Source of the DNA: Candidatus Cloacimonadota bacterium | GTDB lineage: Bacteria; Muiribacteriota; UBA6191 | Reading direction: 5' to 3' | DNA: 64,000 bases | NCBI GenBank assembly: GCA_023954715.1 | Contig: JAGSHD010000001.1 | Coordinates: 428,468-492,467, forward strand | In this document: positions 15,701 to 45,207 of the stretch, in pieces | Layout: every line of letters starts with the position of its first letter | How positions within the stretch are numbered: position 1 is the first letter of the stretch | Made by a program: the position numbers and the translations under genes | The notes under the pieces: model-generated | The model's database searches: none | What the model was told of the DNA's origin: nothing | Seen by the model: the letters and a program-made list of their open reading frames with translations, nothing else

Positions 15701-16350
15701 AAGTCACTAGCTTTCACATTGTTAAAAACTAAGGAGTCAGCGTACTTTAACTGTAGTGCTAAGACTTCATCTAACATAGGATTGATTTCAGCTTTTATTG
15801 AGGCTACCGTGCTTTGATTAGAGCCTCCACCAATTCTATTGAAAATCTCTTCTTTAACAAAACGATAGGCACCATCAGAGTTAACATCCACATTTATTTT
15901 TGGGACTGACACTAAAAAAGAGTTGGGATCATATAGTGAAAACATTTCTTTATCATCAAAGGTAAAACGTAAAACCAAAGTACCTAGATTTTTTGGATTT
16001 GCTGTTTCAAAATCTTCTTCGTTTAATATAAATTGTCCTTGTGAGTTTGTAATCACATTAGCCGATGATTTTAACAAGTCATTAGAAAACTCAAAGTCAT
16101 CTGCTTTATAAACGCTTAATTTGGCGGAAACTACTCGATTGCTAGAAGAACTTTTAGATATTGATTTTAAAATAGACTTTGAGATCGATGAAGAAACAGT
16201 AGTAGGAAAAGTTAAAGTACCACTTACAAATAACTTACTAGCTATGACCGAACTACTAGAGTCATCTACTTTTGCGCCACAACCAATTAATAGCAATGAC
16301 AGCGCAAAAGCGCACAAACACAAATATGTTTTAATCTTTTTTTTGTCCAT
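9721..16350 (-). CDS. Giant surface lipoprotein (about 2209 aa), paralog of the preceding gene. Start moved to the internal ATG at 16350
   Basis: MDKKKIKTYLCLCAFALSLLLIGCG signal peptide with LIGC lipobox begins at the ATG at 16350; the track start at 16416 adds a non-signal extension. Shares an N-terminal SISKSI(L)KS motif and an RFVKEEI...IGG block with the 2329-aa protein. NHL-like repeats (DILYVADDKLKIHKY..., IWVVDEQSSRISSF) in the N-terminal third. Confidence 0.7.
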   Translation of the reverse strand: MDKKKIKTYLCLCAFALSLLLIGCGAKVDDSSSSVIASKLFVSGTLTFPTTVSSSISKSILKSISKSSSSNRVVSAKLSVYKADDFEFSNDLLKSSANVITNSQGQFILNEEDFETANPKNLGTLVLRFTFDDKEMFSLYDPNSFLVSVPKINVDVNSDGAYRFVKEEIFNRIGGGSNQSTVASIKAEINPMLDEVLALQLKYADSLVFNNVKASDFLITRDQRFAGRGKQWLEQSEKLDTSDSIVKGFVEVKSRVENKLIVQNNTSPVRKQAQLVLSLLDLGYFILLPNQRVLVADRWSKLDNGNTIPYKAYLNLDEILSSINQTLPDSEKSILKAPNKIISLSTSELDTIASISPNHKLIIDAIVKDARRFPWINLQILSELAKVSGSNFLNVTSLYQKSSINHEVHLADGEFVSNASGSLDYFFPYQAIKSVGFTKGVSASLQKRLSTRSALNFGLNTFFEFLSQDNIYLGYFLETLEAKHKKAIKNGFSPKLHLDSFSAPQSKLSIQNTMYRNFSGSLQYTSLAISRKAQYLQKYYEWNRDKSIQGQSLSNTTNLSVMDFFYESLLEGFMVFPSDSTQTLFTILGPNVIPNYLNITHLSKKLDSYVSYYQSILNDSNINVQLNIDTGFSLWETKLSSLRQTLDKTSFIDNFTESTIVAGRLLASDQSATPLENFKLLLFDSQQKLIQSTYSNGFGEYSFQSIQAPKDLMLAIELNSLSNSQSQIMTIQEEIFLHGWEKRKALHDYFLLNQVNSSTGETIVLTQIQKSNQSPFLALNTTKQISKSLLELSIAYSDFETADLNFLMNYTHDGNLYRAKSLKLLPTTTNTQNTISLSSTRNSSTVSIYWDIYNDLSSKISDLSTVNSIILSMALQESQDLRVGSSIVNKFQVLDFKVPSVRFIYPTTSSILSNTIVSSVDVEIKDKSGVAYANLVNLSKPSSNRVTVNGIQDLQNRDIWHFQNFELESGIANVFEIETMDFLSNKHAQNLTHVVNSLDATPPKIWFKEISLFKSQYKSKLKVFKTYSVDGANKLTIEIPVTPTILGNSVQYSLAQSWTRFENDVSSVYLELDAVTTSSLQYTLNITDENNISFYQIGTKKIFPPQSNNINVSERVSFLNEQQNYLLDISAFDSSSLQSQLSLKIRTLDFQGPSIFVSSPSISSLTTIYSTTQSIQGLSVDTSPIASVSACIGSQCVSISSTSTQLSWELTGLQFTEGLSNTVNISASDIFGNISKLSPFVYELDDVTKPSLVVTSVNGVSSSIIITTGQELSPPIYELTNCKDLLCPVNVKGFIEDRSGFNLSSNGLGLFDSFRLTIPESYSELINPPLSSTNSVTHFSRVTINNHLSQSALFHQTASIVKDGIWPVRLYLEDNYTGKYQGYTKAPLKSNAILYFKKDVTGPVISEFQLDTNSLTVGGKFKIRGKVGDELSAITNLNINGEASSFITSTSLSTWNNIVTLPTNSSIVFEKVLTAVSGANTVFLTASDSFGNISTSSLVFNIFPIFDSLKSTYKNVFTSPSDMDFTGVGLSSVLISQKSNPSLSLIGVGFQSILGVTGTTNSDYSTLKKLHNFASFTSMNPANTTQTVLLNGHFEGINSDVNRTIHLKKDLNNQSSTFLSYISEGEGKDNQSHQLYRDVAVVSGSFTNLSTATIFEYSPFLSSVTYAYSATSSNSSSQLFRYVNGVQTGINLPSSQGGKPSSTGLLGLLDFQLPSTISSIRVTQSYVVNSSNPNNLDIGSEVVHLLDSNNKKILRQHFDSKTSQSFQALTALTFTYSPVAFEVSINGDILYVADDKLKIHKYRRESTDALTLLTSFGGHGLRDGQFITISSIRALQRTSHQGIEEIWVVDEQSSRISSFTSNGVFISHYLQNPNNIGAQQNIVDMDFTPNDELFVVDQQLAAIDFYTKNLQSDYRINLESLGQGLLQTESHVGFTKWQEQNFTQAVTNKDNPLYFTNSFEKLKASTREVHVLVPSKKSLYSMRETSDSYFRSILTNGLRTLEFQTSRTYTFLTTSTGLELAFDKAVDMNVAYDIDNHLLTLENVNGAKSRLQYRKLDGSAIPDTHANLNLQSEAVDFCRFDKGIISIGSDPKNKLEVYLSRSNPSLNRLGFVSSESIIDFAGNSIGFTNPKAMSCNKDQVAIIDEEVIKIFSIVVNLDNTVQITQKANLDYYQDLGKVKSLSQPKQLAINDDYLFVVDGLNSLIKYRLR

Positions 16351-16609
16351 TAATTTTTTTGTAAAGCCCTCAAGATTAGTAATACAGCGCAATATAAAGT
16401 TATGAATCGGAAGCAATTTTCTTTCTTTGTGACCGTTTCTAGCTAAAATTTAGAAATTGAATCATTAAAAAAAAGTAACAAAAGCTCTGATATACTATCG
16501 ACCTATTTACTAAAAAACTGTGGATTTAGTGTACAAAAGTCTAGCGAAATACTAACTTTTTGTGTATATTTGCTATCTTCAAAAAACCAACTGAAACCCA
16601 TTATTGATA

Positions 16610-16789
16610 ATGAACGCAAAAAGAATCTCTTGTATAAAGTGTAAATACTACAAAGTTACCTGGGAGCCAGATCGACCTCACTCATGTACTTTGTTTGCTT
16701 TTAAAAGTAAAGCAATCCCTATGCACGTTGTAAGGCAAACTGACGGCAACCAATGTCAGGGCTACAAAAAAAAATAACCTGTTTACAAA
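16610..16789 (+). CDS. Candidate 59-aa Cys-rich basic small protein (CxxC...C...C). Not in the ORF track and has no SD, so doubtful
   Basis: ATG at 16610 follows an in-frame TAA. Translation: MNAKRISCIKCKYYKVTWEPDRPHSCTLFAFKSKAIPMHVVRQTDGNQCQGYKKK. It coincides exactly with a locally GC-rich island in an AT-rich spacer. It converges on the stop of the minus-strand gene. Confidence 0.2.
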
Positions 16790-18054
16790 ACATCCATAAA
16801 AGCAGAAACGCTAAACACTGCATTTCCTGGGCCTGTTGGTCCATATCCTTTAGGGTTTGGCAGATCATGTTTGTGAAATGTCTCACGAAACACTCTTAAG
16901 AGTTTCATAAAGTACTCTAATTTTGGTGCTTCTTGTGGCCCTAACTTTGCATAAGGCTCGGGACACCAACTTGTAAATCGAGGCATTATTTTTTTACTCA
17001 TAAAAAACTCTAGACCTTCTTTAGTAGACGCAATTGCTTGATCCACATCAGTGTAACCATAGTTTTTATTCATTTCTACGCCACCAACAAAGTTAGGAAT
17101 CACATTTTCAGGACCAAATATTTCGGCCGAATCAACAATCCGCTTCATCCATTCTTCTCTTCCTATCCAACGAGTTTTACCTGGACAGATTTGTGGCCAT
17201 AAATCCTTATCCCATACTTCAAAGTTTGGGTGGTAGATGCTAACACCACTATCTTTAAGAATCTGACATTCACTTTTTTCATAAGCTTGAACTACGGCTT
17301 TAATCAACCATCGATCTCCAAAGCGGTCATGTATTGCTTTAGCATAAGGAGCATAAAACTCAACTTCTGTTTTATTTTGTAGTCCTGTAATGATAGAGCC
17401 ACCTGTTAGAGTAATCGCTTTGGAGATTGTATCTTCTTCTGCGATTAACTCTAGCGCTTCAAGGATTTCATCTAAAGATTTGACACCAGTATAGTCTCTA
17501 CCAGACTCTCTTTGCTGTTTGTAGTTTTTATTTAAATCACAAAATTGACACTGCTCTTCTTTGTTAAAATACTGACACATACGGTATACCGTTAGATAAA
17601 CCAAGTATCCCCACTCTAAAACAGGAGCGATTTCAGATATTTTTTTTCCGTTGGATAATTTTTTATGATAAAAAACAGGAACTGGATGATATTCAACATC
17701 TGCTAAATACTCGTCATTCAAAGAAATGATCAATCTACCTTCCAACAAATCTACTTTATATGGAGATTTTGGATTTAGTCTAACTGAGATTACAGTCTTT
17801 TTAAGATCAAAGATACCACCAGATATCTTAATCTCTTCGGGAGCATTTAAGTTTTCTTCTTTTTTCATATCTTTGATTGGAACCAAATCAAATGAAAAAA
17901 TAAAATAGTCTTTCGGTTTATATCCTTTTGCTATTTTAAGTGAATCTAAAGAAAAATCTAATCCATCTCTTAAGATATCTTGTTTTACTACTGCTTCTTT
18001 TGGTAAGTCTTTAAACTCGATGATATGATCTTCGAGATATTTCAAATTGGCCAT
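16783..18054 (-). CDS. Radical-SAM-like enzyme with an atypical Cys cluster (Cx9Cx2C) and a GGS motif about 40 residues downstream
   Basis: ATG at 18054. CQYFNKEEQCQFC is followed by ITLTGGSIIT at the spacing where canonical radical SAM proteins carry GGE. No other family recognised by eye. Sits 10 nt upstream of a SAM methyltransferase on the same strand. Confidence 0.4.
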   Translation of the reverse strand: MANLKYLEDHIIEFKDLPKEAVVKQDILRDGLDFSLDSLKIAKGYKPKDYFIFSFDLVPIKDMKKEENLNAPEEIKISGGIFDLKKTVISVRLNPKSPYKVDLLEGRLIISLNDEYLADVEYHPVPVFYHKKLSNGKKISEIAPVLEWGYLVYLTVYRMCQYFNKEEQCQFCDLNKNYKQQRESGRDYTGVKSLDEILEALELIAEEDTISKAITLTGGSIITGLQNKTEVEFYAPYAKAIHDRFGDRWLIKAVVQAYEKSECQILKDSGVSIYHPNFEVWDKDLWPQICPGKTRWIGREEWMKRIVDSAEIFGPENVIPNFVGGVEMNKNYGYTDVDQAIASTKEGLEFFMSKKIMPRFTSWCPEPYAKLGPQEAPKLEYFMKLLRVFRETFHKHDLPNPKGYGPTGPGNAVFSVSAFMDVL

Positions 18055-18064
18055 TATTTATCTT

Positions 18065-18694
18065 CTATCGAAACGCAAAGTGTCTTGCAATTGCTGGGGG
18101 AAAGTTTAAAAATACTTCGTCAGTGTCTACTTGATAAGCATCAACAAAGCTGTTAAGTAGTTTATATTTAGGCATGCTAACTTGTCTTTTAAGTGCTACA
18201 TTAAGTTTTTCTTTTATCTTTCTAACATATAAATACTCAAAGTAAGATAGCTTACCATTGTCTGTAAGAAGATTTTGATAACCCGTTAGAATACTTTGTA
18301 TCACGTCTGATTTAAAGTTATTTAACGGTAAGCCAGAGATCACAAAATCAAATTTGTGCTCTAGACCTATTTCTTCCATAAAACAACAATGAACCTTAAA
18401 GTCCACACCTTCTAACTGCTCTTTCCATTCATTTTCAGCCATCTTGTTTAACAACTCACAAAATGACTCGTTAACTTCAACCAAATGGAAAGTATCGCCA
18501 GGCTTAACATGTTTCAGTATACCTTCAGTAATTGGTCCCGTACCAGGCCCAATCTCGATGATTCTTTTTGGTCCTTCGAATGTCTTTAGGTTTTTGGCTA
18601 AAGCCTCTGCTAAATAAGAAGTAGAGGGAAATATAGAGCCTACAGTCATAGAGTTATCTTTAAACTCTTTAAAAAATGATAAAACGCTTCTCAT
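18065..18694 (-). CDS. Class I SAM-dependent methyltransferase (209 aa)
   Basis: Motif I IIEIGPGTGPITEGIL is followed by an acidic residue after a beta strand (HLVEVNE). Size and layout resemble small-molecule or lipid N-methyltransferases. ATG at 18694. Confidence 0.65.
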   Translation of the reverse strand: MRSVLSFFKEFKDNSMTVGSIFPSTSYLAEALAKNLKTFEGPKRIIEIGPGTGPITEGILKHVKPGDTFHLVEVNESFCELLNKMAENEWKEQLEGVDFKVHCCFMEEIGLEHKFDFVISGLPLNNFKSDVIQSILTGYQNLLTDNGKLSYFEYLYVRKIKEKLNVALKRQVSMPKYKLLNSFVDAYQVDTDEVFLNFPPAIARHFAFR

Positions 18695-22609: not shown

Positions 22610-23368
22610 TTAAGTCCTAGTCATAAAGCTTAAAATATGCTGATGAACTTCTTCTACCCATGGAATATCATGGAGTGCATATTCGCTGTTTTCATCAATT
22701 ACTTTGCTGCTATGCCCAGCGCTCACCCCTGCCATCACGGAGTTAGCAACCTGCCCACCAACATGAACTTGACTCTCCATTGCACCTGTACCTAATCCAC
22801 TTGAAGTGATAGGAATAATCGTACCATAGCCAAATATTTTGCCAAAAATACCCACATGCATTTGGATATCTTGAATCTTTGAATAAAACACGGTTCTACT
22901 TCTTGTTTTAAAGCCTGGTTTTAGAAACTCGATCCTAAAGTTAGTCACCATATACTTCGTACCAACCCTTACGTACTCTTGATAAAACAAAAATAATAGG
23001 CTTAACATAAAAAGTACTCTAGGCCCCAAATCTTCAATCTCCGGGTAAAACCACTGTAAGATAATCAATAAGCTCAAAGATACTAACAAATACGAGTATT
23101 CTCGCCACATAATTCGAGTGACCGCAATAACTAAACCACAAAGTACAGGAGGAACAATCCAAATATTATGAGAAAACTTCAAAACAAACCAAGATAAAAT
23201 GGCAATCGACTCCACCTTAGAGTCAATAAAAGCTAATAAATCCAGTTTATATAAAAGCCACACTCCTAATAAAACGACATTCATTAGCCAAAATAAGCTC
23301 TTCGAACCCAATGTTAGTAATCTAGGGTTTAACTCATAATAGACTTGTTCGTCATCAATTAACTTCAT
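22610..23368 (-). CDS. Membrane protein with a bacterial PH (YdbT-like) domain
   Basis: Several hydrophobic helices, then a C-terminal soluble region. Last gene of the sugar/LCP operon; it starts 2 nt after the LCP stop. Confidence 0.5.
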   Translation of the reverse strand: MKLIDDEQVYYELNPRLLTLGSKSLFWLMNVVLLGVWLLYKLDLLAFIDSKVESIAILSWFVLKFSHNIWIVPPVLCGLVIAVTRIMWREYSYLLVSLSLLIILQWFYPEIEDLGPRVLFMLSLLFLFYQEYVRVGTKYMVTNFRIEFLKPGFKTRSRTVFYSKIQDIQMHVGIFGKIFGYGTIIPITSSGLGTGAMESQVHVGGQVANSVMAGVSAGHSSKVIDENSEYALHDIPWVEEVHQHILSFMTRT

Positions 23369-23370
23369 TG

Positions 23371-24798
23371 TTACTCCTTGATGTTAGGTTTTGTAGATGC
23401 AGGAAAACCTAATACACTTGTTTGAATAACAAAGCCAAAACTACTACTTTGTTTTGTCACTATATCCATCTGATTTAAACTATCACTTAAGACATGGTGT
23501 GACGATACACTTTGGGTCTCTAATATACTTGTTTTTGGTATAACTGCAGTAGTTGAAAGTAACGAAGGGGTTATTGAACTTACTATTATACTAATATCAG
23601 TCGACGCTGTCATGGCTATGTTAGAGCTCACAGAACTACTTAACACCATTGACTTGGTTCTTGTAACGGTCTTTGGTTTAGAAATATTCAATGGATCATT
23701 TAAAGGATCTAATATTGCTTGTGGAATCTCATTGGTTTGAAACAACCACGAGTAAGAAGCAATTTTATCTTTTCTACTCGATACAAAAAAGTTAATTTTT
23801 TTCTTGTAGTTTTTAACATGTAAATAAAGCCCTTCCCCTTTTAAAGTTCCGTGTTTTAATGCGCCTTTTTTCATGTCTCTAAATCGCAATAAAAGCTTAA
23901 ATACTAAATCTGCACTCAAATCGGTCTCTACATCTTTTAGCAAAGACACAAAAAACTTAGGTAATCTCCCGATAAAGGCGATATTTTTCCATTTAAATGA
24001 AAATAGATCTCTCAATCTCTCTTCAAATGACAAGATAAACTTTTTTTGTCTTTTAATTCGTCCTAGATCACCCATACCATCAGCTCTAAATCGAACATAA
24101 CCTTCGGCATTTTTCCCAGTTAAGTATTGACTTCCTTTTTTAATATCTATAATCAGACCATCCGCTTTATCTTGATAATACATATCTTTCAATACATCTA
24201 CTTTTACTCCCCCAAGAGTATCAATGATTTTTCTGAACAATTTTAAATCTACTACAATAGAGTGATCTATTTTTATATGAAAGAATCTAGTCAAGGAATC
24301 CTTAAGCATCGTTAAACCACCCCATCGAAATGTATGATTTAACTTGTCTAAAATAAGGTCTCCATCCTTTAAAATGGGTACTCTAGTATCTCTTGGCATA
24401 GATAAAAGGTGGATTTTTCCGCTATCTAAAAAGACATGGCATAATATAATAGTATCAGCACGATTTTTATTTTCTTTTCCTAAGACAAGAATCGTATAGC
24501 GTTTTTTAAGTTTATCTGTAGCATACTCTTTGGTGGCATAGGCTTTAGCACCTTTGATTTTTTTTATCTCTAATTTACTATTAGCGATATATAGATTTAC
24601 TTGAAACAAAAAGACTACGATTGCAATACAAACTAAAAATAAAAAACGCCCAAGAATCTTTCTCTTTCTAGCTCCTATATTATTGTCTTTTAAATCTACA
24701 AAATCATCTTGTTTTTTAAAGAGTGCTATCCCTGGAAACTCAGGGATACAATCCAATATTTTCTTGAAGAACTTGCCCATGAATTTACTGTCCAGCAA
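23371..24798 (-). CDS. LytR-CpsA-Psr (LCP) family protein with a Ser/Thr-rich C-terminal tail
   Basis: N-terminal TM helix, then ILVLGKENKNRADTIILCHV...LLSMPRDTRVPI, an LCP core motif. C-terminal 110 residues are S/T-rich. Start ambiguous: TTG at 24798 or ATG at 24780. Confidence 0.7.
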   Translation of the reverse strand: MLDSKFMGKFFKKILDCIPEFPGIALFKKQDDFVDLKDNNIGARKRKILGRFLFLVCIAIVVFLFQVNLYIANSKLEIKKIKGAKAYATKEYATDKLKKRYTILVLGKENKNRADTIILCHVFLDSGKIHLLSMPRDTRVPILKDGDLILDKLNHTFRWGGLTMLKDSLTRFFHIKIDHSIVVDLKLFRKIIDTLGGVKVDVLKDMYYQDKADGLIIDIKKGSQYLTGKNAEGYVRFRADGMGDLGRIKRQKKFILSFEERLRDLFSFKWKNIAFIGRLPKFFVSLLKDVETDLSADLVFKLLLRFRDMKKGALKHGTLKGEGLYLHVKNYKKKINFFVSSRKDKIASYSWLFQTNEIPQAILDPLNDPLNISKPKTVTRTKSMVLSSSVSSNIAMTASTDISIIVSSITPSLLSTTAVIPKTSILETQSVSSHHVLSDSLNQMDIVTKQSSSFGFVIQTSVLGFPASTKPNIKE

Positions 24799-25351
24799 TC
24801 ATAAAGTTATAACAGTGAATACTATCTGGATGAACTTGTTTACCAGAATCAATAGTATATTTAATCTTATGACTTAATATTTTTAGTATTAGAGCATCTA
24901 TACTCTCTATTGCTTGCTTCATGAAAGTCTTGTCATGCCATGTCCTCAAAGGCTCAATATAATCAGCCACATAAAGGATTTTATCGTCTACACTCATTTG
25001 AGCTTTACCCGTAGTATGCCATAGTATTGGTGACAAATAATCTGCTGTAAGGCCAAACAACTCTTGAGACTTAAAAAATGAAGTTTTTGCATGATAGAGT
25101 GCTGAGTTAGCTAAAAGAGTTTGATCTTTTGGAAACTTCACTTGAAGCAACTCTTTTTGGCTTTGATTGTCATCCTCTTTGCATAGATCATGTAACAAGC
25201 CAAGAATCTTATGCCTTTGGCTATCTAAGTTAAAATGTAAGGCTAGTTTTTCAGCGGTTTTACTTACAGAAATTATATGCCCTAAACGCTTACTAGCAAC
25301 TCTTTTTTTTAGCTCGCTCAATATGTCAGTTTCTAGTTGCTTGAAGTTCAC
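24785..25351 (-). CDS. HD-domain phosphohydrolase, YqeK-like (GTG start)
   Basis: H..V...A..LA........LGLLHDLCKED, an HD motif. 188 aa, as in YqeK-type Ap4A hydrolases. Overlaps the LCP gene by 14 nt. Confidence 0.6.
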   Translation of the reverse strand: MNFKQLETDILSELKKRVASKRLGHIISVSKTAEKLALHFNLDSQRHKILGLLHDLCKEDDNQSQKELLQVKFPKDQTLLANSALYHAKTSFFKSQELFGLTADYLSPILWHTTGKAQMSVDDKILYVADYIEPLRTWHDKTFMKQAIESIDALILKILSHKIKYTIDSGKQVHPDSIHCYNFMIAGQ

Positions 25352-25375
25352 AGTTTTATCCGAATCAACATAAAA

Positions 25376-26377
25376 TTACAAAATACCTTGTTTTTCTTCG
25401 AGGCTTAATAATAGATTTAATATTTCTTCTTTAGATAAGTAGGTAGAATGCTCAGAGTCATAAATACTCTTATCAATTGATTCATCTTTGTTTACGGTGT
25501 GTCCTACAATCAACATTTCAGTCTCTTCTTTGCAGTAAGGCAACTCATGTGCAAATAAAAGCTCTTCATGTAGTTTTTCGCCCTCACGTGTGCCCACAAT
25601 ATTTAAATCAACCGTTTTTAATCCTTTTAAAGAAGCATACTCTCCACGAATTACTTCAACAAGATCTAATACACGAATACATGGCATCTTAAGAATGAAT
25701 GTTTCTCCATATTTAGCTAATTGCCCTGCTTGTAAAACTAATGATACTGCTTTTTGTAAAGTCATCACAAAACGAGTCATATCAGCATGAGTCAAAGTAA
25801 TGGATTTACCCTCTCTTAATTGAGATAAAAACAAGGGAATCACTGAGCCGCGAGTACCTAAAACATTACCAAATCGAACACAAGAAAAGATTGTTTTTCG
25901 AGGCCCCTTGTAGCGATTTGCTGTACCCATCAGTTTTTCAGCCAGTAATTTAGTAGTACCCATAGTATTAATTGGGTTAACAACTTTATCAGTGGAGACT
26001 AAAATTACTTTTTTAACGCCTTTTTCCATGGCAACTTCAATGATATTTTGAGTCCCAATTACATTTGTTTTAACAGCTTCAAATGGATTAAACTCACAAG
26101 ACGGAACTTGCTTTAAAGCAGCTGCATTAAATACATAGTCTACGTTTTCCATTGCTAGTGACAATCGTGACTTATCTCGAATATCTCCCATCAAAAAACG
26201 AACTTTAGAGGTATCGTCTAACTCCTGATGAAAACAATATTGTTTGTATTCATCTCTAGACAAGACTCGAATAGAAGCAGGTTCATATTTCAAGACCTCT
26301 TGAACTAAAGCACGCCCGATAGAGCCGGTACCACCCGTGACCAATATTGTTTTACCTTTGAGATAATCTAAGCCCAT
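25376..26377 (-). CDS. pseB: UDP-N-acetylglucosamine 4,6-dehydratase (PseB/CapD/FlaA1 family)
   Basis: KTILVTGGTGSIGRAL Rossmann motif, 333-aa length, YxxxK region. Position in a nucleotide-sugar operon. Confidence 0.75.
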   Translation of the reverse strand: MGLDYLKGKTILVTGGTGSIGRALVQEVLKYEPASIRVLSRDEYKQYCFHQELDDTSKVRFLMGDIRDKSRLSLAMENVDYVFNAAALKQVPSCEFNPFEAVKTNVIGTQNIIEVAMEKGVKKVILVSTDKVVNPINTMGTTKLLAEKLMGTANRYKGPRKTIFSCVRFGNVLGTRGSVIPLFLSQLREGKSITLTHADMTRFVMTLQKAVSLVLQAGQLAKYGETFILKMPCIRVLDLVEVIRGEYASLKGLKTVDLNIVGTREGEKLHEELLFAHELPYCKEETEMLIVGHTVNKDESIDKSIYDSEHSTYLSKEEILNLLLSLEEKQGIL

Positions 26378-26378
26378 T

Positions 26379-27470
26379 TTAGCTCCGATCTAAGACCATT
26401 AAATTTGAGGGAGTATTCCCATTGTCTAAATGTACTAAAGTCCCTTTATTTTGGCAAGAATTATATATACAATCTATGACTTTTACAGCATCTAAACCAT
26501 CTTGAATTGTGGACTGATTGGGAGCCTTCGACTCGATGATATCAAGTAAATGTTTTAAACGACTTTTAAACGGATTGATGGCTGTTGGCAGCTCTAATTG
26601 CTTAGGCTTTAAAAACGGTGAGTTACTCGGCTTTTGAAAAAAGCTGATATTTCCGTGAGAATCAATCAATTTTGCTCTCTCCCATTGAATTTGTATTTCA
26701 AAATGAAAGTACCTTCTTCTTCCACCTACTAAAAAACTGCCTAATACATTGTTTTCAAAAAACATATTACCCAAACAAGTATCCTCAGTTAACAGATTTT
26801 TCTTTTCTTGGCTAGCCACTCCGTTTACGCTTAAAGGTCGTCCAGCATACCAAACCATCAAATCAAACAAATGAGTCCCATCATGCAATAGTGGGCCACC
26901 AAAGTAGCTTTTTTCTTTTTGCCCTTTTGATTTTTTTACAAAAGATCCACAATGAATTTCACCATGAATTGATTTCAATTTACCCAACCCTCTTTTATTG
27001 ATTAAACTTTTATAGAAAGAAAAACTAGAATAAAAACGCCGATCGTGGCAAACAACAACATTTAACCCCTTCAAAAGCTCTTGAATTTCAATAGCTTCTT
27101 TTGTATCCATCCCTACAGGTTTTTCTAATAGAACTCCAAAAACTTGATTAGATTTTGCATATTCAGCTACAATTTGACAAGATTCCAAATGAGCACTAGA
27201 GCTTGCACAGATTGAGATGATATTTGGTTTAAGCTCTTGTAAGATGTTTTTTAGATTTTTACTAGCAGTCTTAACTCCGGTATAACTCTCTTCAAACAAG
27301 TCGCATTGATTTTGATCTATATCATATCCACCGATCAAGTCTACTTCTTGATGATCAAAATAAGCCCCAGCATGTGTACAAGGAAAAGTTCGAAAGCTAT
27401 CCTGCTCCATAGTAAAAGCAATACGGCCCAATCCAATAACAAATGCTTTATACATATAATTCAGACTCAT
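26379..27470 (-). CDS. Gfo/Idh/MocA-family NAD(P)-dependent oxidoreductase
   Basis: N-terminal VIGLGRIA dinucleotide-binding motif and EKP catalytic-region motif (LLEKPVG). Confidence 0.65.
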   Translation of the reverse strand: MSLNYMYKAFVIGLGRIAFTMEQDSFRTFPCTHAGAYFDHQEVDLIGGYDIDQNQCDLFEESYTGVKTASKNLKNILQELKPNIISICASSSAHLESCQIVAEYAKSNQVFGVLLEKPVGMDTKEAIEIQELLKGLNVVVCHDRRFYSSFSFYKSLINKRGLGKLKSIHGEIHCGSFVKKSKGQKEKSYFGGPLLHDGTHLFDLMVWYAGRPLSVNGVASQEKKNLLTEDTCLGNMFFENNVLGSFLVGGRRRYFHFEIQIQWERAKLIDSHGNISFFQKPSNSPFLKPKQLELPTAINPFKSRLKHLLDIIESKAPNQSTIQDGLDAVKVIDCIYNSCQNKGTLVHLDNGNTPSNLMVLDRS

Positions 27471-28368
27471 ATTTCATCATAATTAAATGCTCATGCTCCA
27501 CTTCAAAACTACTAATTTTACGATCACAAGCCCACTCCAATAAATTTTGGCAAAAATCTAATCCAGCTGCAATTGTTAATGGGATTCCGCCTGAAAACCT
27601 TGGATTAATTTCAAGAAAATAGAACTCATTGTTATGCTCAATACACTGAATATTCCAGGGACCTTTTAATGCAAAATTTTGATTTATGGATTGAATCAAC
27701 TCAATCAATTTTTGATTCATACAAACATATCCAACATCAGATACCCCTGCTCGAACTTTATCTCGAACTCTGGGTAAAATATTTATTATATTGCAATCAT
27801 TATCACTGAATACATCAACAGTATACTCCTTACCATCAACCCATTTTTGTATAAAACCATTTGTCAGTCTAGGCCAAAACACATCTAACTCTGCATCTGA
27901 GTAAATCTTAAATTGATTTACTGACCCATAACCTAAATCTTCTTTTAAAACAGAAGGATAAGATTTAGACCCATTTTTTTGATAAATTTCAGGTACATTC
28001 AAACCGTGCTTTTTAAAAAACTCTGCTGACTCGGTTTTCGATAAAAACTTCTTTAATGTTGACCCAGAGTCTAAAACACGAACCTTTGAGTCAATAGGAT
28101 TACTTAGAAAATACTTTAAATCTAAATCACTCCCCGGAAGGATAAAATCAATTTGATACTTATCTAATACATCTTTCAATGCTTCATTAAAGTTTGCATG
28201 ATCCATTCTTGGCACCATTTCAAAATAATCACAAAATCGCAAAGATGGAGTATGCTCATAAATCTCAGTACCAACTAATTTTAATGGGATATCTAATTTT
28301 TTTGCCGCCTGTCTAAGAAGTTTAATTAAAGTGACTCTTCGGCCTGTGCTTGGGAGTAAAATATTCAT
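27448..28368 (-). CDS. ATP-grasp domain ligase
   Basis: C-terminal LEINPRFSGG and neighbouring KGPWNIQCIEHNNEFYFLE match the ATP-grasp fold (CPSase-like). Confidence 0.6.
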   Translation of the reverse strand: MNILLPSTGRRVTLIKLLRQAAKKLDIPLKLVGTEIYEHTPSLRFCDYFEMVPRMDHANFNEALKDVLDKYQIDFILPGSDLDLKYFLSNPIDSKVRVLDSGSTLKKFLSKTESAEFFKKHGLNVPEIYQKNGSKSYPSVLKEDLGYGSVNQFKIYSDAELDVFWPRLTNGFIQKWVDGKEYTVDVFSDNDCNIINILPRVRDKVRAGVSDVGYVCMNQKLIELIQSINQNFALKGPWNIQCIEHNNEFYFLEINPRFSGGIPLTIAAGLDFCQNLLEWACDRKISSFEVEHEHLIMMKYESELYV

Positions 28369-29282
28369 TGAGGATGGTCTTCTTTTTGAAAAGGGATGTC
28401 ACACTGTGCACAAAGCCCACTACATTTGCTGCTAGTCTTATTTAAAGAGAAGCTGTCTTTTCTAGCAATAAGCCACTTTCGTAGCGAAACCATTTCTTTT
28501 GAGTTCCAGGCATCCATAATGGGTATATTTTTACCTAATGGATAAATCCCATCAAAATCTACACAACAAGGAACAAAAGTGCCATCCCACAAAACGGCCA
28601 TGGACCTCCATGGATAAGAACATATATTGTATTGCTTAACCACATCCTCTGTTTTAAGACCATCTAAATATCCAATCCAGTTTCTGTATACTTTTACATT
28701 TAAATAGTCTGGATTGAGCAATTTCATTTGCTTTTTGAAATCCTCGATAAGATCTCTTGTTTCATCTAACTCTATTACCTCTATTGTAATTTCACAGCTA
28801 GATTTTAACTCATTTTTTAGCTCAATAACTCTTGTTATATTTGCTAAAGTTGTTTCATAATTACCATTTACTCTTAAGGACTCGTAAATCTCTTTATTTA
28901 CGCCTTCAAAAGAAATTGTTATATGTTGAATCCCCGTTTTTAAAAGAGCAATGGCCTTCTTTTCATTTAAAAAAGATGCATTGGTATTTAATCTACACTC
29001 CAAACCACGCTTTACAATTTCTTCAATCATAAAAAAGAGTTCTTTGTGCATTAAAGACTCACCCAAAAAGAACAAGTTAATCTTTTTAACTCCACAGTTA
29101 CATGCATCTTCTAAAAGATTTAAAAAGACTTCTCTCTCCATAAACCCTTTATCTCTAGTTTGATCTTTTTGAGGACAAAAAACACATGCTAAATTACAAT
29201 GATTGGTTGGTTCAATGAATAGTGTATAAGGTGCGTTGTCGCACACTGCTGATCGGTTTTTATATTTTTCCAGATTGTCCAT
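28365..29282 (-). CDS. Radical SAM enzyme with a SPASM-like C-terminal Cys cluster
   Basis: IEPTNHCNLACVFCPQ is a canonical Cx3Cx2C. C-terminus carries CCVDFDG...CSGLCAQC. Confidence 0.7.
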   Translation of the reverse strand: MDNLEKYKNRSAVCDNAPYTLFIEPTNHCNLACVFCPQKDQTRDKGFMEREVFLNLLEDACNCGVKKINLFFLGESLMHKELFFMIEEIVKRGLECRLNTNASFLNEKKAIALLKTGIQHITISFEGVNKEIYESLRVNGNYETTLANITRVIELKNELKSSCEITIEVIELDETRDLIEDFKKQMKLLNPDYLNVKVYRNWIGYLDGLKTEDVVKQYNICSYPWRSMAVLWDGTFVPCCVDFDGIYPLGKNIPIMDAWNSKEMVSLRKWLIARKDSFSLNKTSSKCSGLCAQCDIPFQKEDHPQ

Positions 29283-30210
29283 GTTGAATTATTAGATCTA
29301 CTACAAGCTTTGTAGAGTCTTCTCCGTTTAGTTTTTGAAAGTGCTTTACTATACTATCGACATCTTCTATTTCAAAGACTTCATTTATAGCTTTTATCAA
29401 TTGAGTTTCGTCAAAATTATGGTGTAAACCAAAGTATTGCCCCAATTTATGATGAACCAAGTTTAATGCTGTTGTTTCTTGCTCTTGATTTTGCGCAATC
29501 ATTAACGGAATACAGCCTGACTTTAAAGCCTCGTACGCTGTAATTCCTCCTGAGCAAATAATCACCTTATAGGCTCCCATAAATAATGAAAGCTGTTTTA
29601 CATTTTCTAAAAAAGTTAGTTTTGGAAAAGCCTCTTTTAAAAAATGTCTACGCTTTTGGGTAAACCCAGGACCAATCACAATATCTAAATTATCCATAGA
29701 ACATTTTTTTAAAAACTGCTCTGTTATCTCATTGGGGTCTGATCCCCCAAAACTCAGTAATACTTTATTATTTTTTACCTGTTTTTTTATACCGCGTCCA
29801 AAGACAAAATACTTTACACCGATATACTCTACTCTTTGATTTAAATTAAGAACTTGATGATCTAACCCTAGTAAAGTACTACAAATATGAACATCAACCA
29901 AATACCGAAGATCAGATAATTCATCTATGGCTATTGTAGTAATCTCATCTACTGCTGAGTAAAATGACTTTGGAAACTCAGGCTCATCTATAATTAAAAC
30001 ATCAGCAGACTTACAGAGCTTCAAAAACTCTTTTTCTGAATCAATATGTAATGCAGTAAAATCAAGTAAAAGCATAGCTTTTTGTGAATGAAAATGTACA
30101 AAAAGAACTTCGTATCCTTTGTAAGCTAGCTCTTTGGCAATGACTTCCAATCTCTTTAAATGACCAAAGCCGATCGAGACACTAGCCTCTGTCTTTAGCA
30201 AAAACTTCAT
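29260..30210 (-). CDS. PseG/SpsG-like UDP-sugar hydrolase (MurG-like GT-B fold)
   Basis: SIGFGHLKRLEVIAKEL matches the GxGHxxR signature of the PseG family. 316 aa. Confidence 0.5.
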   Translation of the reverse strand: MKFLLKTEASVSIGFGHLKRLEVIAKELAYKGYEVLFVHFHSQKAMLLLDFTALHIDSEKEFLKLCKSADVLIIDEPEFPKSFYSAVDEITTIAIDELSDLRYLVDVHICSTLLGLDHQVLNLNQRVEYIGVKYFVFGRGIKKQVKNNKVLLSFGGSDPNEITEQFLKKCSMDNLDIVIGPGFTQKRRHFLKEAFPKLTFLENVKQLSLFMGAYKVIICSGGITAYEALKSGCIPLMIAQNQEQETTALNLVHHKLGQYFGLHHNFDETQLIKAINEVFEIEDVDSIVKHFQKLNGEDSTKLVVDLIIQHGQSGKI

Positions 30211-30920
30211 ACTCTATTTTGCTCTACTTGACGATTCATTTCAAATATATTGGGTTTGCTTTGAAACAGCTCTGCTATTTCTTTTATAGAAATTTCATAA
30301 GGGTCTTTTTGTAAAGTTGTACAAATAGCTCGAACCATATCTAAGTCTAATTGCTCATCAATCGTCAATCGCAAATCAGACAAAGACTTATATTTTTGTC
30401 TAAAAACTCCGCATTTATAGATATCTTGCCTTTGATAATAAGCACAAGTCACATGCTCTTTTTGAAAGTCATCTTGTTTATCCTGCGCTTGTTTTAAAAA
30501 GCTTTTTTTAGTTAATATTTCAAAGCTACAACCCAAAGGTAAATCAACATTTAAAATACGATCTAAATTTACGCTTTTCATTTGATCTAACATGGCTAGA
30601 TAGTCACTCACTTCAACAAATGGATTGTCTCCTGTTACCCTTGCGAAATATGGAGTCTTGAGATTTTTTACTACATCTAAAAACCTCTGAAAAACATTTT
30701 CTTCACTTCCCCTATAAACAGTAATATTTCGATCTTTACAAAATACTTCTAGCTCATCATCTTGCTTAGAGTCAGATGTTAAAATAATAGTATTATGATG
30801 ATTAATCCTATGAACTATGTTTTCGATCAAAGACTCTTTGTATAGTTTCATCAAAACTTTCTTAGGAAGTCTCTTAGAGCCTAATCTAGCTTGTACTAGA
30901 AAAGTAATTTCTTCACTCAT
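30207..30920 (-). CDS. CMP-nonulosonic-acid cytidylyltransferase family (PseF/SpsF/NeuA-like)
   Basis: N-terminal ARLGSKRLPKKVL motif is typical of this family. First gene of the minus-strand operon. Confidence 0.65.
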   Translation of the reverse strand: MSEEITFLVQARLGSKRLPKKVLMKLYKESLIENIVHRINHHNTIILTSDSKQDDELEVFCKDRNITVYRGSEENVFQRFLDVVKNLKTPYFARVTGDNPFVEVSDYLAMLDQMKSVNLDRILNVDLPLGCSFEILTKKSFLKQAQDKQDDFQKEHVTCAYYQRQDIYKCGVFRQKYKSLSDLRLTIDEQLDLDMVRAICTTLQKDPYEISIKEIAELFQSKPNIFEMNRQVEQNRV

Positions 30921-31303
30921 AGTTTAATCCCTAGGCTTAGTTTAACAAATACAAAATCTTTAGTTTTCAATCAAGTGATGCTCTATCACTTAGACTTACA
31001 AAGATAAACGCATCAATATTTATAGTCAATTTTTCATTTTCAGAGAAACATCTTTCTCTTCCCAAAAAAAATTAAGAGTTTGCATTTAGGTCTAACTTAT
31101 AAACTAAATTCATGACAACAATTGCAAAAGAATTCATTTCTTCAGCTCGGATAATTTTAATAAATAAGCTTTTAGTGTAAAATCTTTAAGTCTCTTTTTT
31201 GAATAGTTACAAATTTACCGTAAGAAAATATATTCATTAGAGGATATTGAAATTTCGACACCCAAGCATTCGATTTTTAATTTTAAAAGGCAGGACATGT
31301 TTT

Positions 31304-32698
31304 ATGTTACCAAGATTCTATATACTTCAAGATGATGAACAACTTCTTACCCAAACTTTTGGTAAAAAGTCAGTAATCAACGGTCCAAAAGTCTATTTCA
31401 AACCTCCTACTACCTCTATAATTGAAAGAAGAAGAGGTATTTCTCTTTCTTCTAAACAATTTATACATGTTAGAAACGCTCTTAGTGGAGAGATTACAAT
31501 GAAAACAGGGCCTTGCTTTTACTTTTTGGAGTCCCAAGAAAAGATCGAGTCCGCTGGTGAAGCCTTACCTCTTGCTGTTGATGAATATACTTATGTTAGA
31601 AATAATAGTACGGGTAAAACAACCGTAGTCAAAGGTGAATGCTCCTATATGCTACAACCCCATGAAAGTTTTTTAGGCAACTCCTTTAAAGCCACTCAGA
31701 TCGATGACCTTACAGCAGTCATTGTACGTAACATTGCTAATGGTAGCCTCAAACTAATCACTGAGTCACAAACCTTTATGCCACAAGATGATGAAGAAAT
31801 CACTGAAGTAGTAAACAAAATTCGACTAGAAGAACACGAATTAATGGTCTTGATTGATAACGAGGGTAAATATCATTTTTATTCTGGTCTTGGCGAGGAT
31901 AGCTCCTTTTTCATTCCACCTCACTGGAAACCACTCGTATGCCAATGGTCTTCTGGTTTGTTAAAGGAGTCTCGAAATTTAAAAATCTCTCGTTTTGATA
32001 TACGTCCTAAATTCATGTGGTATGAGTTTGAGGTTCGTACAAAAGACAATGTTGAACTCATCTTAAAAGTAACTTTCTTTTGGCAAATAGTTGATGTAAA
32101 CACCTTGGTAAAAAATACAGACGATGCCCCTGGGGATGTTTGTGCTCATGCTAGATCCTTGATTATACAAAAAGTTTCTAATGTGGAGTTTTCTGATTTT
32201 TTATCTCGTTTCAATGAGCTAGTACATGAGGCCATTTTTGGACAAGAGGATAGTTTTTATTCTTCTAGAGGAATAAAAATTCACTCGGTAGAAGCTAGAG
32301 AAATAGCCTGTAAAGATCAAAGAACCCAAGACGTATTAACAGAAATCATTCAAGAGACAACATCTCGTATCAACAGGATACAAAAGCAAGTTTCACAAAA
32401 TGAAGTCTCTATGAAGCAACTTGAAGGTAAACTCTTAGAAGAAGAAAATGCTATGAAATTAGCCAAAATGAAAGCGAAAAGAGTTGAAGAGGAAGGACGC
32501 ATAGAAGGACTTAAAAAAGCTAAAATCATCTCAAGCTTTATGGAGGGTTTAGGTTCAGAGTTGAGCCTGAGTCAAAAGGTTCAAATGTATGAAAATCTAA
32601 ACAAAAAAGAAAGTCTACAAACTTTAGCCAATGGCAATACCAAGATGTTTCTTACTCATGATGATATTCAAATGAAGTTAGAAATCAAAGAACCCTAA
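31304..32698 (+). CDS. Bacterial major-vault-protein-like protein: about five MVP (vault) repeats, an SPFH-like shoulder domain and a coiled-coil cap-helix
   Basis: Tandem repeats of about 40 aa fit the vault-repeat pattern Y.hV.N..tG......GP..y.L.P.E (FIHVRNALSGEITMKTGPCFYFLESQE; YTYVRNNSTGKTTVVKGECSYMLQPHE; AVIVRNIANGSLKLITESQTFMPQDDE). A band-7/SPFH-like block follows (RFDIRPKFMWYEFEVRTKDNVELILKVTFFWQIVD). A heptad-rich coiled coil of about 100 aa ends the protein. Start chosen at the ATG at 31304 (AGGA 8 nt upstream) rather than the TTG at 31247. Confidence 0.65.
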   Translation: MLPRFYILQDDEQLLTQTFGKKSVINGPKVYFKPPTTSIIERRRGISLSSKQFIHVRNALSGEITMKTGPCFYFLESQEKIESAGEALPLAVDEYTYVRNNSTGKTTVVKGECSYMLQPHESFLGNSFKATQIDDLTAVIVRNIANGSLKLITESQTFMPQDDEEITEVVNKIRLEEHELMVLIDNEGKYHFYSGLGEDSSFFIPPHWKPLVCQWSSGLLKESRNLKISRFDIRPKFMWYEFEVRTKDNVELILKVTFFWQIVDVNTLVKNTDDAPGDVCAHARSLIIQKVSNVEFSDFLSRFNELVHEAIFGQEDSFYSSRGIKIHSVEAREIACKDQRTQDVLTEIIQETTSRINRIQKQVSQNEVSMKQLEGKLLEEENAMKLAKMKAKRVEEEGRIEGLKKAKIISSFMEGLGSELSLSQKVQMYENLNKKESLQTLANGNTKMFLTHDDIQMKLEIKEP

Positions 32699-42334: not shown

Positions 42335-42934
42335 ATGTCACCAAAGTTAAAATTTCAATCGGATCGACTCATAATTCGCCCTGCTCATAGAACAGACTAC
42401 CAAGAGTGGAGACGTGCTTACCTAGCTGAACTACCCAAACAAAGTTCTTTTGACCCTTCTCCAAGTCAAGGAGACTGTATAACTTACTCTGAATTTCTGG
42501 CTCAGCTTAAAAGATCGAAGCACCTAGTAAAAATGGGCTTAACCTTCAATTTTTTAGCTTTTAAAAAAAGCACCCAGCAGATTATCGGAGACTCTCAACT
42601 TTGGTGTGTACAACGAGGAGACTGTCAAAGAGCAACTTTAGGATTTTCTGTAATAAATAATCACTGGAGATTAGGTTATGGATTTGAAATTGCTCATGCT
42701 ACTATTTGTTTTGCAATCAAAGAAATGGGTTTAAACAGAATTGAAGCAGAAATCAGGCCAGATAATACGCCATCAATCAAACTTTGTGAAAAACTAGGTA
42801 TGCAATCAGAAGGAATTCGAAGACATGCACTGTATGAAGATAATCAATGGCAAGATCATCTCGTCTACTCTATTACTGCACAAGACCTAGGAATAACTGG
42901 TTTAAAGCCTTGTTCAGAGAAAGGTATAATTTAA
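42335..42934 (+). CDS. GNAT-family N-acetyltransferase (RimJ/RimL-like)
   Basis: RLGYGFEIAHATICFAI...NRIEAEIRPDNTPSIKLCEKLGM is the acetyl-CoA-binding motif A/B pattern. 199 aa. Confidence 0.7.
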   Translation: MSPKLKFQSDRLIIRPAHRTDYQEWRRAYLAELPKQSSFDPSPSQGDCITYSEFLAQLKRSKHLVKMGLTFNFLAFKKSTQQIIGDSQLWCVQRGDCQRATLGFSVINNHWRLGYGFEIAHATICFAIKEMGLNRIEAEIRPDNTPSIKLCEKLGMQSEGIRRHALYEDNQWQDHLVYSITAQDLGITGLKPCSEKGII

Positions 42935-44938: not shown

Positions 44939-45207
44939 TATCCGATGTATAAGTCGATATTTTCAATTAGATTAATGGCCCAGGTACTAATCTTAGATAT
45001 CATCCAAGGCCCCAATGCAATCACCGTACTCATCGTTGCTACTACTTTTGGAATAAATGTCAGGGTTTGCTCTTGTAAAGAAGTAGTTGTTTGAAAAACA
45101 GAAACAGCTAGTCCAACAACCAGACCTACTAACAAAGGAGGCAAGCCAACTAACATGGCCATCCACATGGTATCTTTTACTAAATTCATTGCAACTAGTT
45201 CGTTCAT
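44938..45207 (-). CDS. fliQ: Flagellar export-gate protein FliQ
   Basis: 89 aa with two TM helices. Position between fliP and fliR. Confidence 0.8.
   Translation of the reverse strand: MNELVAMNLVKDTMWMAMLVGLPPLLVGLVVGLAVSVFQTTTSLQEQTLTFIPKVVATMSTVIALGPWMISKISTWAINLIENIDLYIG

Follow-up and report, generated by a model that had tools for sequence, protein, structure and literature searches.

A fixed nine-gene operon of an uncultured marine lineage combines a putative Sps/Pse-type nucleotide-sugar block with yqeK and LCP genes

What does a nucleotide-sugar gene set make when the aminotransferase, acetyltransferase and synthase expected of it are missing and three other enzymes are encoded in its midst? 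This question is raised by positions 22610-30920 of a 64,000-nucleotide stretch of contig JAGSHD010000001.1 (assembly GCA_023954715.1), referred to here in its full length as the window. Nine minus-strand genes encode homologs of three enzymes of pseudaminic (Pse) or legionaminic (Leg) acid biosynthesis, a radical S-adenosylmethionine enzyme (radical SAM), an ATP-grasp ligase and a Gfo/Idh/MocA oxidoreductase, and run on into a YqeK-type hydrolase, a LytR-CpsA-Psr (LCP) family protein and a membrane protein with a bPH_2 domain. The nine genes are one operon, kept in fixed order within a single small lineage and composite in origin. Our tentative reading, to which we give slightly less than an even chance, is that of a composite envelope operon whose sugar block is a lineage-specific derivative of the Sps/Pse-type pathways, making a nine-carbon sugar acid that is acylated, redox-tailored and activated with cytidine monophosphate (CMP); the aminotransferase and synthase would come from elsewhere in the genome, and the LCP protein would possibly attach a polymer with this sugar to peptidoglycan. 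The genes, in order of transcription, and the elements bounding them are as follows (UDP-GlcNAc, UDP-N-acetylglucosamine; aa, amino acids).

30921..31246, minus strand: upstream intergenic region, 326 bp, shared with a divergent vault/Band_7 gene
30207..30920, minus strand: SpsF-type cytidylyltransferase (CTP_transf_3), first gene; PF02348, 88.8 bits
29260..30210, minus strand: PseG/SpsG-like GT-B protein, putative UDP-sugar hydrolase; TIGR03590 (PseG), 83.3 bits against a cutoff of 153.55; no Pfam match
28365..29282, minus strand: radical SAM enzyme, 305 aa, its C-terminal SPASM domain truncated (twitch-like); PF04055 and PF13186
27448..28368, minus strand: PRK12767-type ATP-grasp ligase; PylC-like_N, ATP-grasp_3 and ATPgrasp_Ter
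26379..27470, minus strand: Gfo/Idh/MocA NAD(P)-dependent oxidoreductase; PF01408, PF02894 and PF22725
25376..26377, minus strand: UDP-GlcNAc 4,6-dehydratase of the PseB/Pen/CapE/FnlA/SpsM group with a Met-type active site; PF02719 (Polysacc_synt_2), 342 bits
24785..25351, minus strand: YqeK-type HD phosphohydrolase; TIGR00488, 92.7 bits, above the cutoff of 70.15
23371..24798, minus strand: LCP glycopolymer transferase, anchored in the membrane at its N-terminus and rich in Ser/Thr in its tail; PF03816, 125.8 bits; TIGR00350, 114.6 bits (cutoff 62.3)
22610..23368, minus strand: membrane protein with a bPH_2 domain, last gene; PF03703, 32.1 bits
22556..22575, no strand assigned: terminator-like bidirectional hairpin, G+C-rich, between the operon and the convergent fabI

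The open reading frame (ORF) listing gave nine intact, tightly packed ORFs at exactly these coordinates, which bears out the packed cluster of the initial annotation, and Pfam and NCBIfam agreed with the domain assigned to each of the nine genes. Sequences and alignments showed the expected motifs in all nine proteins. In gene order, the junctions measure -4, -23, -4, -23, +1, +24, -14 and +2 bp, and sizeable non-coding DNA is found only at the ends, 5' of the first gene (326 bp) and in a stretch 3' of the last. The upstream gap contains two sigma-70-like sites (31181-31154, 10/12; 31029-31001, 9/12), from a scanned region in which the number of such matches was not above that of shuffled sequence. 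The downstream hairpin has a stem of 8 bp with five G-C pairs, followed by a T-run on the plus strand. Because the genes overlap and share one upstream gap and one terminator, the nine constitute a single, tightly coupled operon.

At least five further distinct contigs (loci L001/L002, L003, L004/L005, L006 and L092) carry all nine genes in identical order, with radical SAM proteins 50-82% identical to that of the window; L001/L002 is NVVD01000017 of assembly GCA_002402105.1 and L006 derives from the metagenome-assembled genome (MAG) BROCD023, whose cassette is on contig JACFNL010000008.1. All contigs with a close radical SAM relative and sufficient length carried the full nine-gene order. Identity to the window falls jointly across the cassette, from 57-92% in L001 to 28-66% in L006, and the dehydratase is the most conserved member (66-92%). 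The flanks vary, with a vault/Band_7, a Tricorn/Big_5 (Tricorn-like protease) or an amidohydrolase gene upstream and fabI or a pseudouridine synthase gene downstream; the fixed nine-gene order between varied flanks therefore points to inheritance as a block. The cassette was seen only in one small uncultured marine lineage that carries the NCBI label Cloacimonadota. Proteins identical to the ATP-grasp and LCP proteins of the window are recorded for an NCBI MAG labelled Candidatus Cloacimonetes; for the radical SAM protein no exact match was on record. Close relatives of the radical SAM protein number about 16 among 5.8 billion protein clusters, and its clade accounts for one representative (425 bits) among 1.84 billion 50%-identity representatives, the next protein scoring 208 bits at 41% identity. 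The eight partner genes were not found beside the distant radical SAM relatives (at most 36% identity, 78 GTDB loci), where only sporadic short-chain dehydrogenase/reductase (SDR) genes and one Bacteriovoracaceae cluster with Gfo and CTP_transf_3 turned up. A literature search on radical SAM and ATP-grasp enzymes together with nonulosonic or pseudaminic acid returned no description of such a cluster.

Three of the sugar genes had initially been regarded as canonical members of the pseudaminic acid pathway. As homologs of steps 1, 4 and 6 of a Pse/Leg-type pathway they retain that assignment in part, but none reaches its NCBIfam equivalog cutoff and the dehydratase has Met in place of Tyr. The dehydratase scored 328.2 bits with TIGR03589 (PseB, cutoff 407.75) and 259 bits with FnlA. 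Its PDB matches ranked 6bwc first (E = 1e-85, deposited as CapD and presumably Pen of Bacillus thuringiensis), followed by 4j2o (a UDP-GlcNAc 4,6-dehydratase/5-epimerase), Staphylococcus aureus CapE and Helicobacter pylori FlaA1/PseB. Its motif STDKVVNPINTMGTTK (STDK…PINTMGTTK) places Met at the position of the catalytic Tyr, and alignments showed the same Met in CapE and 4j2o, and Tyr in 6bwc. This replacement also sets the enzyme apart from PseB and Pen, while FnlA and SpsM of Bacillus subtilis are of the Met type. SpsM has been studied through its M146A and K150A alleles and feeds a UDP-linked legionaminic acid pathway together with SpsG and SpsF (Dubois et al., 2020; PMC7439481). In the PseG-like protein, the N-terminal motif MKFLLKTEASVSIGFGHLKR can be aligned to Campylobacter jejuni PseG (3hbm, residues 1-37), the GFGH histidine included; the protein also has weak similarity to GT-B glycosyltransferases. 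The cytidylyltransferase shares 29-60% identity with those of the other cassettes. It matched no PseF or NeuA equivalog in NCBIfam, giving only weak KdsB N-terminal matches of at most 40 bits, and its best PDB match was an uncharacterised cytidylyltransferase of Leptospira (6oew). Because the three proteins fall below the equivalog cutoffs and the dehydratase is of the Met type, their closest characterised analogue would be the SpsM/SpsG/SpsF trio of B. subtilis rather than PseB/G/F of Campylobacter.

The reported absence of PseC, PseH and PseI from the window was upheld, with no homolog in the 64 kb and none in seven related loci (L001-L007). The Pfam scan covered the window ORFs of at least 120 aa, except four short plus-strand ORFs inside the gene at 50550-54848. 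For PseC, there was no DegT match among the scanned ORFs, and tblastn with a DegT query was empty in the window and in L001-L007; for PseI, there was no PF03102 match in the window, and tblastn with the NeuB of locus L087 was empty in the same sequences. For PseH, no GNAT protein is encoded in the operon, the sole one of the window (42335-42934, Acetyltransf_3) being unlinked and 11 kb away. Counterparts of the B. subtilis proteins SpsC, SpsD and SpsE were likewise not found in the window or in L001-L007.

The ancestry of the block was traced through its ATP-grasp gene. Among 80 metagenome loci around relatives of this protein (28-34% identity), neighbors were tabulated for the 31 that span 6 kb or more, comprising 30 outgroup loci and the cassette copy L092.

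CTP_transf_3 near ATP-grasp: 30 of 31 loci, usually just downstream
NeuB-family synthase near ATP-grasp: 25 of 31 loci, usually immediately upstream
PseG-like protein (317-329 aa; TIGR03590, 41-55 bits) near ATP-grasp: 23 of 31 loci
DegT aminotransferase near ATP-grasp: 15 of 31 loci
Flagellin near ATP-grasp: 12 of 31 loci
PseB-like SDR near ATP-grasp: 9 of 31 loci

Some outgroup loci also include a HAD phosphatase, and in the long assemblies L087-L089 the ATP-grasp cluster lies between flagellin/fliD/fliS and motAB. The ATP-grasp ligase and its cytidylyltransferase partner thus descend from the nonulosonic acid pathways of flagellin glycosylation islands. Because the outgroup ATP-grasp genes sit with NeuB and the cytidylyltransferase, the six sugar genes (30920 to 25376) would represent a nucleotide-sugar block drawn from a UDP-GlcNAc-to-nonulosonic-acid pathway of the B. 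subtilis Sps/Pse type. In the window, the block reads CTP_transf_3, PseG-like, radical SAM, ATP-grasp, Gfo/Idh/MocA and dehydratase, and the radical SAM gene holds the slot directly upstream of ATP-grasp, which in the outgroup islands is that of NeuB. The suggestion of a remodelled nonulosonic acid pathway accordingly stands as regards descent (NeuB in 25/31 loci, CTP_transf_3 in 30/31); such descent does not in itself make the Gfo/Idh/MocA, ATP-grasp and radical SAM enzymes functional stand-ins for PseC, PseH and PseI.

The outgroup loci L087-L163 themselves represent a recurrent and apparently uncharacterised flagellin glycosylation island (for example L087 7452-13486 and L109 6075-12903), with the order DegT, PseG-like, (HAD phosphatase), NeuB, PRK12767-type ATP-grasp, CTP_transf_3 and PseB-like, often with a DUF8042 protein. 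Among the few annotated genes of these islands no PseH-type acetyltransferase turned up, in the absence of a systematic search, and the ATP-grasp protein may be their N-acylating enzyme. In L090 (10001-12309), L104 and L128, ATP-grasp, CTP_transf_3 and Formyl_trans_N form a unit with no NeuB nearby; parts of such a pathway can therefore be encoded apart from the synthase.

The radical SAM enzyme has a CxxxCxxC motif (C29/C33/C36) and four further cysteines, C221, C239, C291 and C294, all invariant across 27 homologs. With only these four invariant in the C-terminal part (C221-x12-G-x4-C239 and C291-x2-C294, the chain ending 11 residues past C294), it does not have the full seven-Cys SPASM motif for two auxiliary clusters. 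Compared with what we take to be the ligand pattern of BtrN, this C-terminus is best read as a putative twitch domain with one cluster. BtrN was also the best PDB match by sequence (phmmer) and the top Foldseek match of an AlphaFold2 model (mean predicted local distance difference test, pLDDT, 88.4), as entry 4m7t with E = 6e-14 and template modeling (TM) scores of 0.62/0.76, followed by SuiB, BlsE, DesII and anSME. The initial annotation had proposed classification by hidden Markov models; when run against NCBIfam, this gave 55 weak matches, all far under their cutoffs (the best, a tungsten-cofactor maturase, at 94 bits against 380), and no functional assignment. The distant relatives (25-36% identity, 78 GTDB genomes) sit among GT4/GT2 glycosyltransferases, Wzx flippases, SDR epimerases, asparagine-synthase-like amidotransferases and DegT proteins. 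Because the enzyme resembles BtrN in sequence and fold and its distant relatives occur in polysaccharide clusters, it likely modifies a sugar, by dehydrogenation, epimerisation or dehydration.

The adjoining Gfo/Idh/MocA enzyme has the GLGRIA Rossmann motif and the EKP motif in its sequence, and its matches were weak: inositol 2-dehydrogenase and archaeal UDP-GlcNAc 3-dehydrogenase in NCBIfam, and 3cea in the PDB. It could be a reductase partner of the radical SAM enzyme by analogy with AprD3, the nicotinamide-dependent reductase that deoxygenates a sugar jointly with the radical SAM dehydratase AprD4 (PMC5461906). In a glycan cluster of a Bacteriovoracaceae MAG (locus L067, 12753-14471), CTP_transf_3 and Gfo/Idh/MocA domains are fused in one 572-aa protein; this cluster also encodes a radical SAM/SPASM enzyme, a PIG-L deacetylase, DegT, GNAT and a second CTP_transf_3. 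As for the ATP-grasp protein, its best match among NF009402-NF009406 was NF009405 (167.6 bits, cutoff 390), and the outgroup member from L087 also remained below the cutoff at 313.5 bits. The AlphaFold2 model (pLDDT 90) had generic nearest folds, namely 2pn1, PylC, PurK, biotin carboxylase and PurT. The predicted fold and the residues invariant in the alignment are consistent with an active ligase, and the model would fit a carboxylate-amine ligase or a transferase of small acyl (formyl or carboxyl) groups.

The last three genes appear to have a history of their own. The LCP motifs RADT, PRDT and R..R..GD.GR..RQ align with those of B. subtilis TagU (6uf6), leaving the catalytic motifs intact; the protein has one hydrophobic helix (residues 53-71), and Ser and Thr make up 36% of its last 100 residues. 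As called here, the ORF has a TTG start, 475 aa and a 14-bp overlap with yqeK; the identical NCBI protein has 469 aa, and translation probably begins at the ATG six codons further on (MGKFFKK…). The bPH protein has hydrophobic segments at residues 24-42 and 65-83, and a homolog (28-81% identity) occupies the same position in every cassette copy. No nadD gene adjoins yqeK in the cassette. The closest named relatives of the LCP protein belong to Halothermothrix orenii, Anoxybacter, Pectinatus, Desulfitobacteriia and several Riflebacteria MAGs, with Halanaerobiales, Negativicutes and Riflebacteria among the groups represented. Five outgroup LCP genes were examined in context.

H. orenii (L171, CP001098): nadD, HD (yqeK), LCP, rsfS, leuS
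Riflebacteria MAG (L172): obg, nadD (359 aa), LCP
Nearest outgroup LCP (L174, 43% identity): HD, LCP, RsfS
Pectinatus: LCP alone
P0173: LCP alone

The length of the 359-aa NadD-family gene product in L172, for which no HD domain is on record, suggests a NadD-YqeK fusion. From these gene orders, yqeK-LCP appears to be an ancestral housekeeping pair older than the cassette, upstream of which the six sugar genes would have been placed at the usual nadD position, with the bPH_2 gene at the usual rsfS position. YqeK and the LCP protein had first been described as extensions of the sugar pathway; the HD(YqeK)-LCP(-RsfS) housekeeping order in H. orenii, the Riflebacteria MAG and the nearest outgroup speaks against their being new extensions of it. 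Because the HD-LCP pair predates the cassette, YqeK is unlikely to be a sugar-pathway enzyme. A role for YqeK as a dedicated nucleotide-sugar phosphatase was considered and rejected in view of HD-LCP pairs that occur elsewhere with no sugar genes.

Taken together, the favored reading is of a sugar block joined upstream of the ancestral yqeK-LCP pair, with the bPH membrane protein as a third part of the operon. The PseG/SpsG-like enzyme would strip UDP and the SpsF-type cytidylyltransferase would yield a CMP-activated sugar acid. The ATP-grasp protein may attach an acyl or aminoacyl group, and the BtrN-like radical SAM enzyme, with its single auxiliary cluster, and the Gfo/Idh/MocA enzyme may remodel the sugar skeleton by oxidizing, epimerising or deoxygenating a secondary alcohol, the last having its precedent in AprD4/AprD3. 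The aminotransferase and NeuB-type synthase steps would be supplied from elsewhere in the genome. A UDP-GlcNAc-derived hexose whose N2 is acetylated offers neither the carboxylate nor the amine that ligase-type ATP-grasp enzymes require; those CTP_transf_3 enzymes that have been characterised are known for activating 2-keto-3-deoxy sugar acids rather than hexoses. Supply in trans is favored because CTP_transf_3 acts on sugar acids, ATP-grasp needs an amine or carboxylate, and some outgroups split the pathway; this ordinary explanation, with the missing genes elsewhere, is quite likely. The chances are roughly even that the LCP protein attaches a polymer containing the operon's sugar to peptidoglycan.

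Several observations weigh against this reading. YqeK alone reaches an equivalog cutoff, and because no other enzyme does, the substrates are assigned by analogy only. Neither the 64-kb window nor the roughly 20 kb around each other cassette yielded an aminotransferase, N-acetyltransferase or NeuB gene, and the supply of these steps in trans is an assumption; the strict absence of these genes from every copy, with the radical SAM gene in the NeuB slot, also fits a different, self-contained chemistry. Genes for a glycosyltransferase, a flippase or a polyprenyl-phosphate transferase are missing from the operon, as is any direct link between the sugar and the LCP substrate. The ancestry of yqeK-LCP weakens, without removing, the case for LCP action on the sugar of the operon, and two of the five outgroup LCP genes examined have no HD neighbor.

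The best placed of the alternatives, though itself unlikely, is that two unrelated modules share one promoter, the sugar block serving flagellin or lipopolysaccharide glycosylation and yqeK-LCP(-bPH) acting as housekeeping genes on a different polymer. The pair does occur without sugar genes in H. orenii, the Riflebacteria MAG and L174; the cassette has no glycosyltransferase or lipid-carrier genes; the widest spacing within the operon, 24 bp (25352-25375), lies exactly at the boundary of the PseB-like dehydratase and yqeK; and outgroup ATP-grasp/CTP_transf_3 clusters adjoin flagellin genes. However, the junction is kept in all copies down to 50% radical SAM identity while the flanks have changed, and no separated copy was seen. 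The cassette is invariant across the lineage, in contrast to the hypervariability typical of glycosylation islands, and no copy adjoins flagellin. Nearby flagellar genes had been taken to indicate a diderm; the window has only the export-gate genes flhB, fliR and fliP (43002-46193), which are uninformative on an outer membrane and lie 12 kb from the cassette with unrelated genes in between.

Somewhat less probable still is a self-contained route that does not lead to a nonulosonic acid, in which the six enzymes would turn UDP-GlcNAc into an activated derivative of a 2-acetamido-2,6-dideoxy-L-hexose. The dehydratase would give a 4-keto sugar; the radical SAM and Gfo/Idh/MocA enzymes would then act on a ring position by oxidation, dehydration or reduction, much as AprD4/AprD3 do; the PseG-like protein would be a glycosyltransferase or a hydrolase; ATP-grasp would acylate or phosphorylate; and CTP_transf_3 would re-activate the product with CTP. 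NeuB and DegT are indeed missing from every cassette copy, and Met-type dehydratases are also used for L-FucNAc and related sugars, as the CapE and FnlA matches recall. The PseG-like protein is far under the PseG cutoff and weakly similar to GT-B glycosyltransferases, which would suit this route, but the specificity generally known for CTP_transf_3, 2-keto-3-deoxy sugar acids, would not, and a ligase-type ATP-grasp would find no carboxylate or amine on the hexose. The fusion in L067 shows that the cytidylyltransferase and oxidoreductase activities can be coupled, but that cluster also holds DegT and GNAT, and the relatives of the ATP-grasp and cytidylyltransferase sit in clusters containing NeuB.

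It is very improbable, in our view, that the cassette suffices by itself for the whole synthesis of an activated sugar that is higher-carbon or unprecedented in some other way; the twitch-type radical SAM enzyme would then have taken over the chain-building of NeuB or another skeleton-defining step, and the product would be made specifically for an LCP-attached wall polymer in a lineage for which such polymers are undescribed. Radical addition to a 5,6-ene has been proposed for TunB in tunicamycin biosynthesis. That the radical SAM enzyme replaces the synthase through such C-C bond formation, for example on UDP-6-deoxy-GlcNAc-5,6-ene from a Pen-like dehydratase, to give a higher-carbon sugar with no NeuB, is scarcely credible: the enzyme is encoded in the NeuB position directly upstream of ATP-grasp and the best structural homolog of the dehydratase, 6bwc, is presumably Pen, but the positional argument is weak, the nearest relatives in sequence and fold are the dehydrogenase BtrN and other single-substrate enzymes, the dehydratase has the Met of CapE and SpsM rather than the Tyr of Pen, and no enzyme for a three-carbon donor is apparent. 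Pen of B. thuringiensis is reported to release the 5,6-ene (title of a reference cited in PMC7439481).

All parts of the cassette come from known families; what is new is their fixed combination, in which twitch-type radical SAM, ATP-grasp and Gfo/Idh/MocA enzymes accompany the Met-type dehydratase, the PseG-like protein and the SpsF-type cytidylyltransferase, together with the consistent lack of NeuB and DegT and the junction with yqeK-LCP. Even under a conservative reading, it is a clean marker for one uncultured marine lineage and shows a route by which a variable glycosylation module becomes a fixed core envelope operon, and the fixed junction gives a handle on LCP substrates outside the classical Gram-positives. 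If the six enzymes do work without an aminotransferase and NeuB, they would constitute a new branch of bacterial sugar-acid or deoxy-sugar biosynthesis and would provide a first function for the widespread, uncharacterised ATP-grasp protein of flagellin glycosylation islands.

Other genes of the window were surveyed as well. The gene divergent from the operon (31247-32698, plus strand) encodes Vault_4 (Major Vault Protein repeat), MVP_shoulder and SPFH/Band_7 domains, and a gene of this type also adjoins the cassette in L001/L002. Two giant adjoining minus-strand ORFs (2487-9476, 2329 aa; 9721-16416, 2231 aa) had no Pfam match at E <= 1e-3 when SLH/S-layer domains, as possible binding sites for an LCP-attached polymer, were sought, and may encode large surface or structural proteins. 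Just downstream of glgA, at 16783-18694 on the minus strand, are genes for a small SAM-dependent methyltransferase and for a 423-aa protein that matched Radical_SAM below the threshold (23 bits); the two also follow glgA in L001. The minus-strand gene at 50550-54848 encodes a 1432-aa protein consisting almost wholly of HEAT/PBS-lyase-type repeats, with a zinc ribbon at the N-terminus. At 55220-58706, also on the minus strand, genes for an NTP_transferase/IspD-like nucleotidyltransferase, GlmS and a PfkB-family sugar kinase stand in a row, a possible supply line for activated hexosamine.

Among known systems, the Sps pathway of B. subtilis resembles the cassette, as judged by motif and domain type, in its dehydratase of the Met/Lys type (M146/K150 in SpsM, STDK…M…K in the cassette), in the PseG-like hydrolase SpsG and in SpsF, a cytidylyltransferase of the CTP_transf_3 family for which no PseF or NeuA equivalog is matched. 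Both would use UDP-linked precursors, and in both a cell-surface layer, not necessarily flagellin, would receive the product. The cassette differs in being without SpsC (aminotransferase), SpsD (acetyltransferase) and SpsE (NeuB), in having radical SAM, ATP-grasp and Gfo/Idh/MocA enzymes, and in its predicted co-transcription with yqeK, LCP and bPH. With the canonical CMP-pseudaminic acid pathway (PseB, C, H, G, I and F of Campylobacter and Helicobacter, and the Pen/Pal variant of B. thuringiensis) it has in common the homologs of steps 1, 4 and 6, the GFGH motif of PseG and a strong match to FlaA1/PseB, and it is set apart by the absence of PseC, PseH and PseI, by homologs that remain under the cutoffs and by the Met of the dehydratase. 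The flagellin islands L087-L163 resemble it in the ATP-grasp subfamily (28-34% identity over the full length), CTP_transf_3 (23-35%) and the PseG-like protein; in them NeuB immediately precedes ATP-grasp, DegT is usual and flagellin frequent, and the radical SAM, Gfo/Idh/MocA, YqeK, LCP and bPH genes are missing.

Similar comparisons can be made for single parts of the operon. BtrN, the radical SAM dehydrogenase of butirosin biosynthesis with a twitch domain, is like the cassette enzyme in sequence, fold and its four C-terminal cysteines, at an identity of only about 20%; its substrate is an aminocyclitol, whereas the cassette enzyme would act on a sugar or nucleotide sugar. AprD4/AprD3 likewise pairs a radical SAM enzyme with an NAD(P) oxidoreductase in a carbohydrate context. 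Finally, the nadD-yqeK-LCP-rsfS order of H. orenii has the HD (YqeK) gene directly upstream of, and overlapping, an LCP gene with conserved domain and motifs, and in the cassette the six sugar genes stand in the place of nadD and the bPH_2 gene in that of rsfS.

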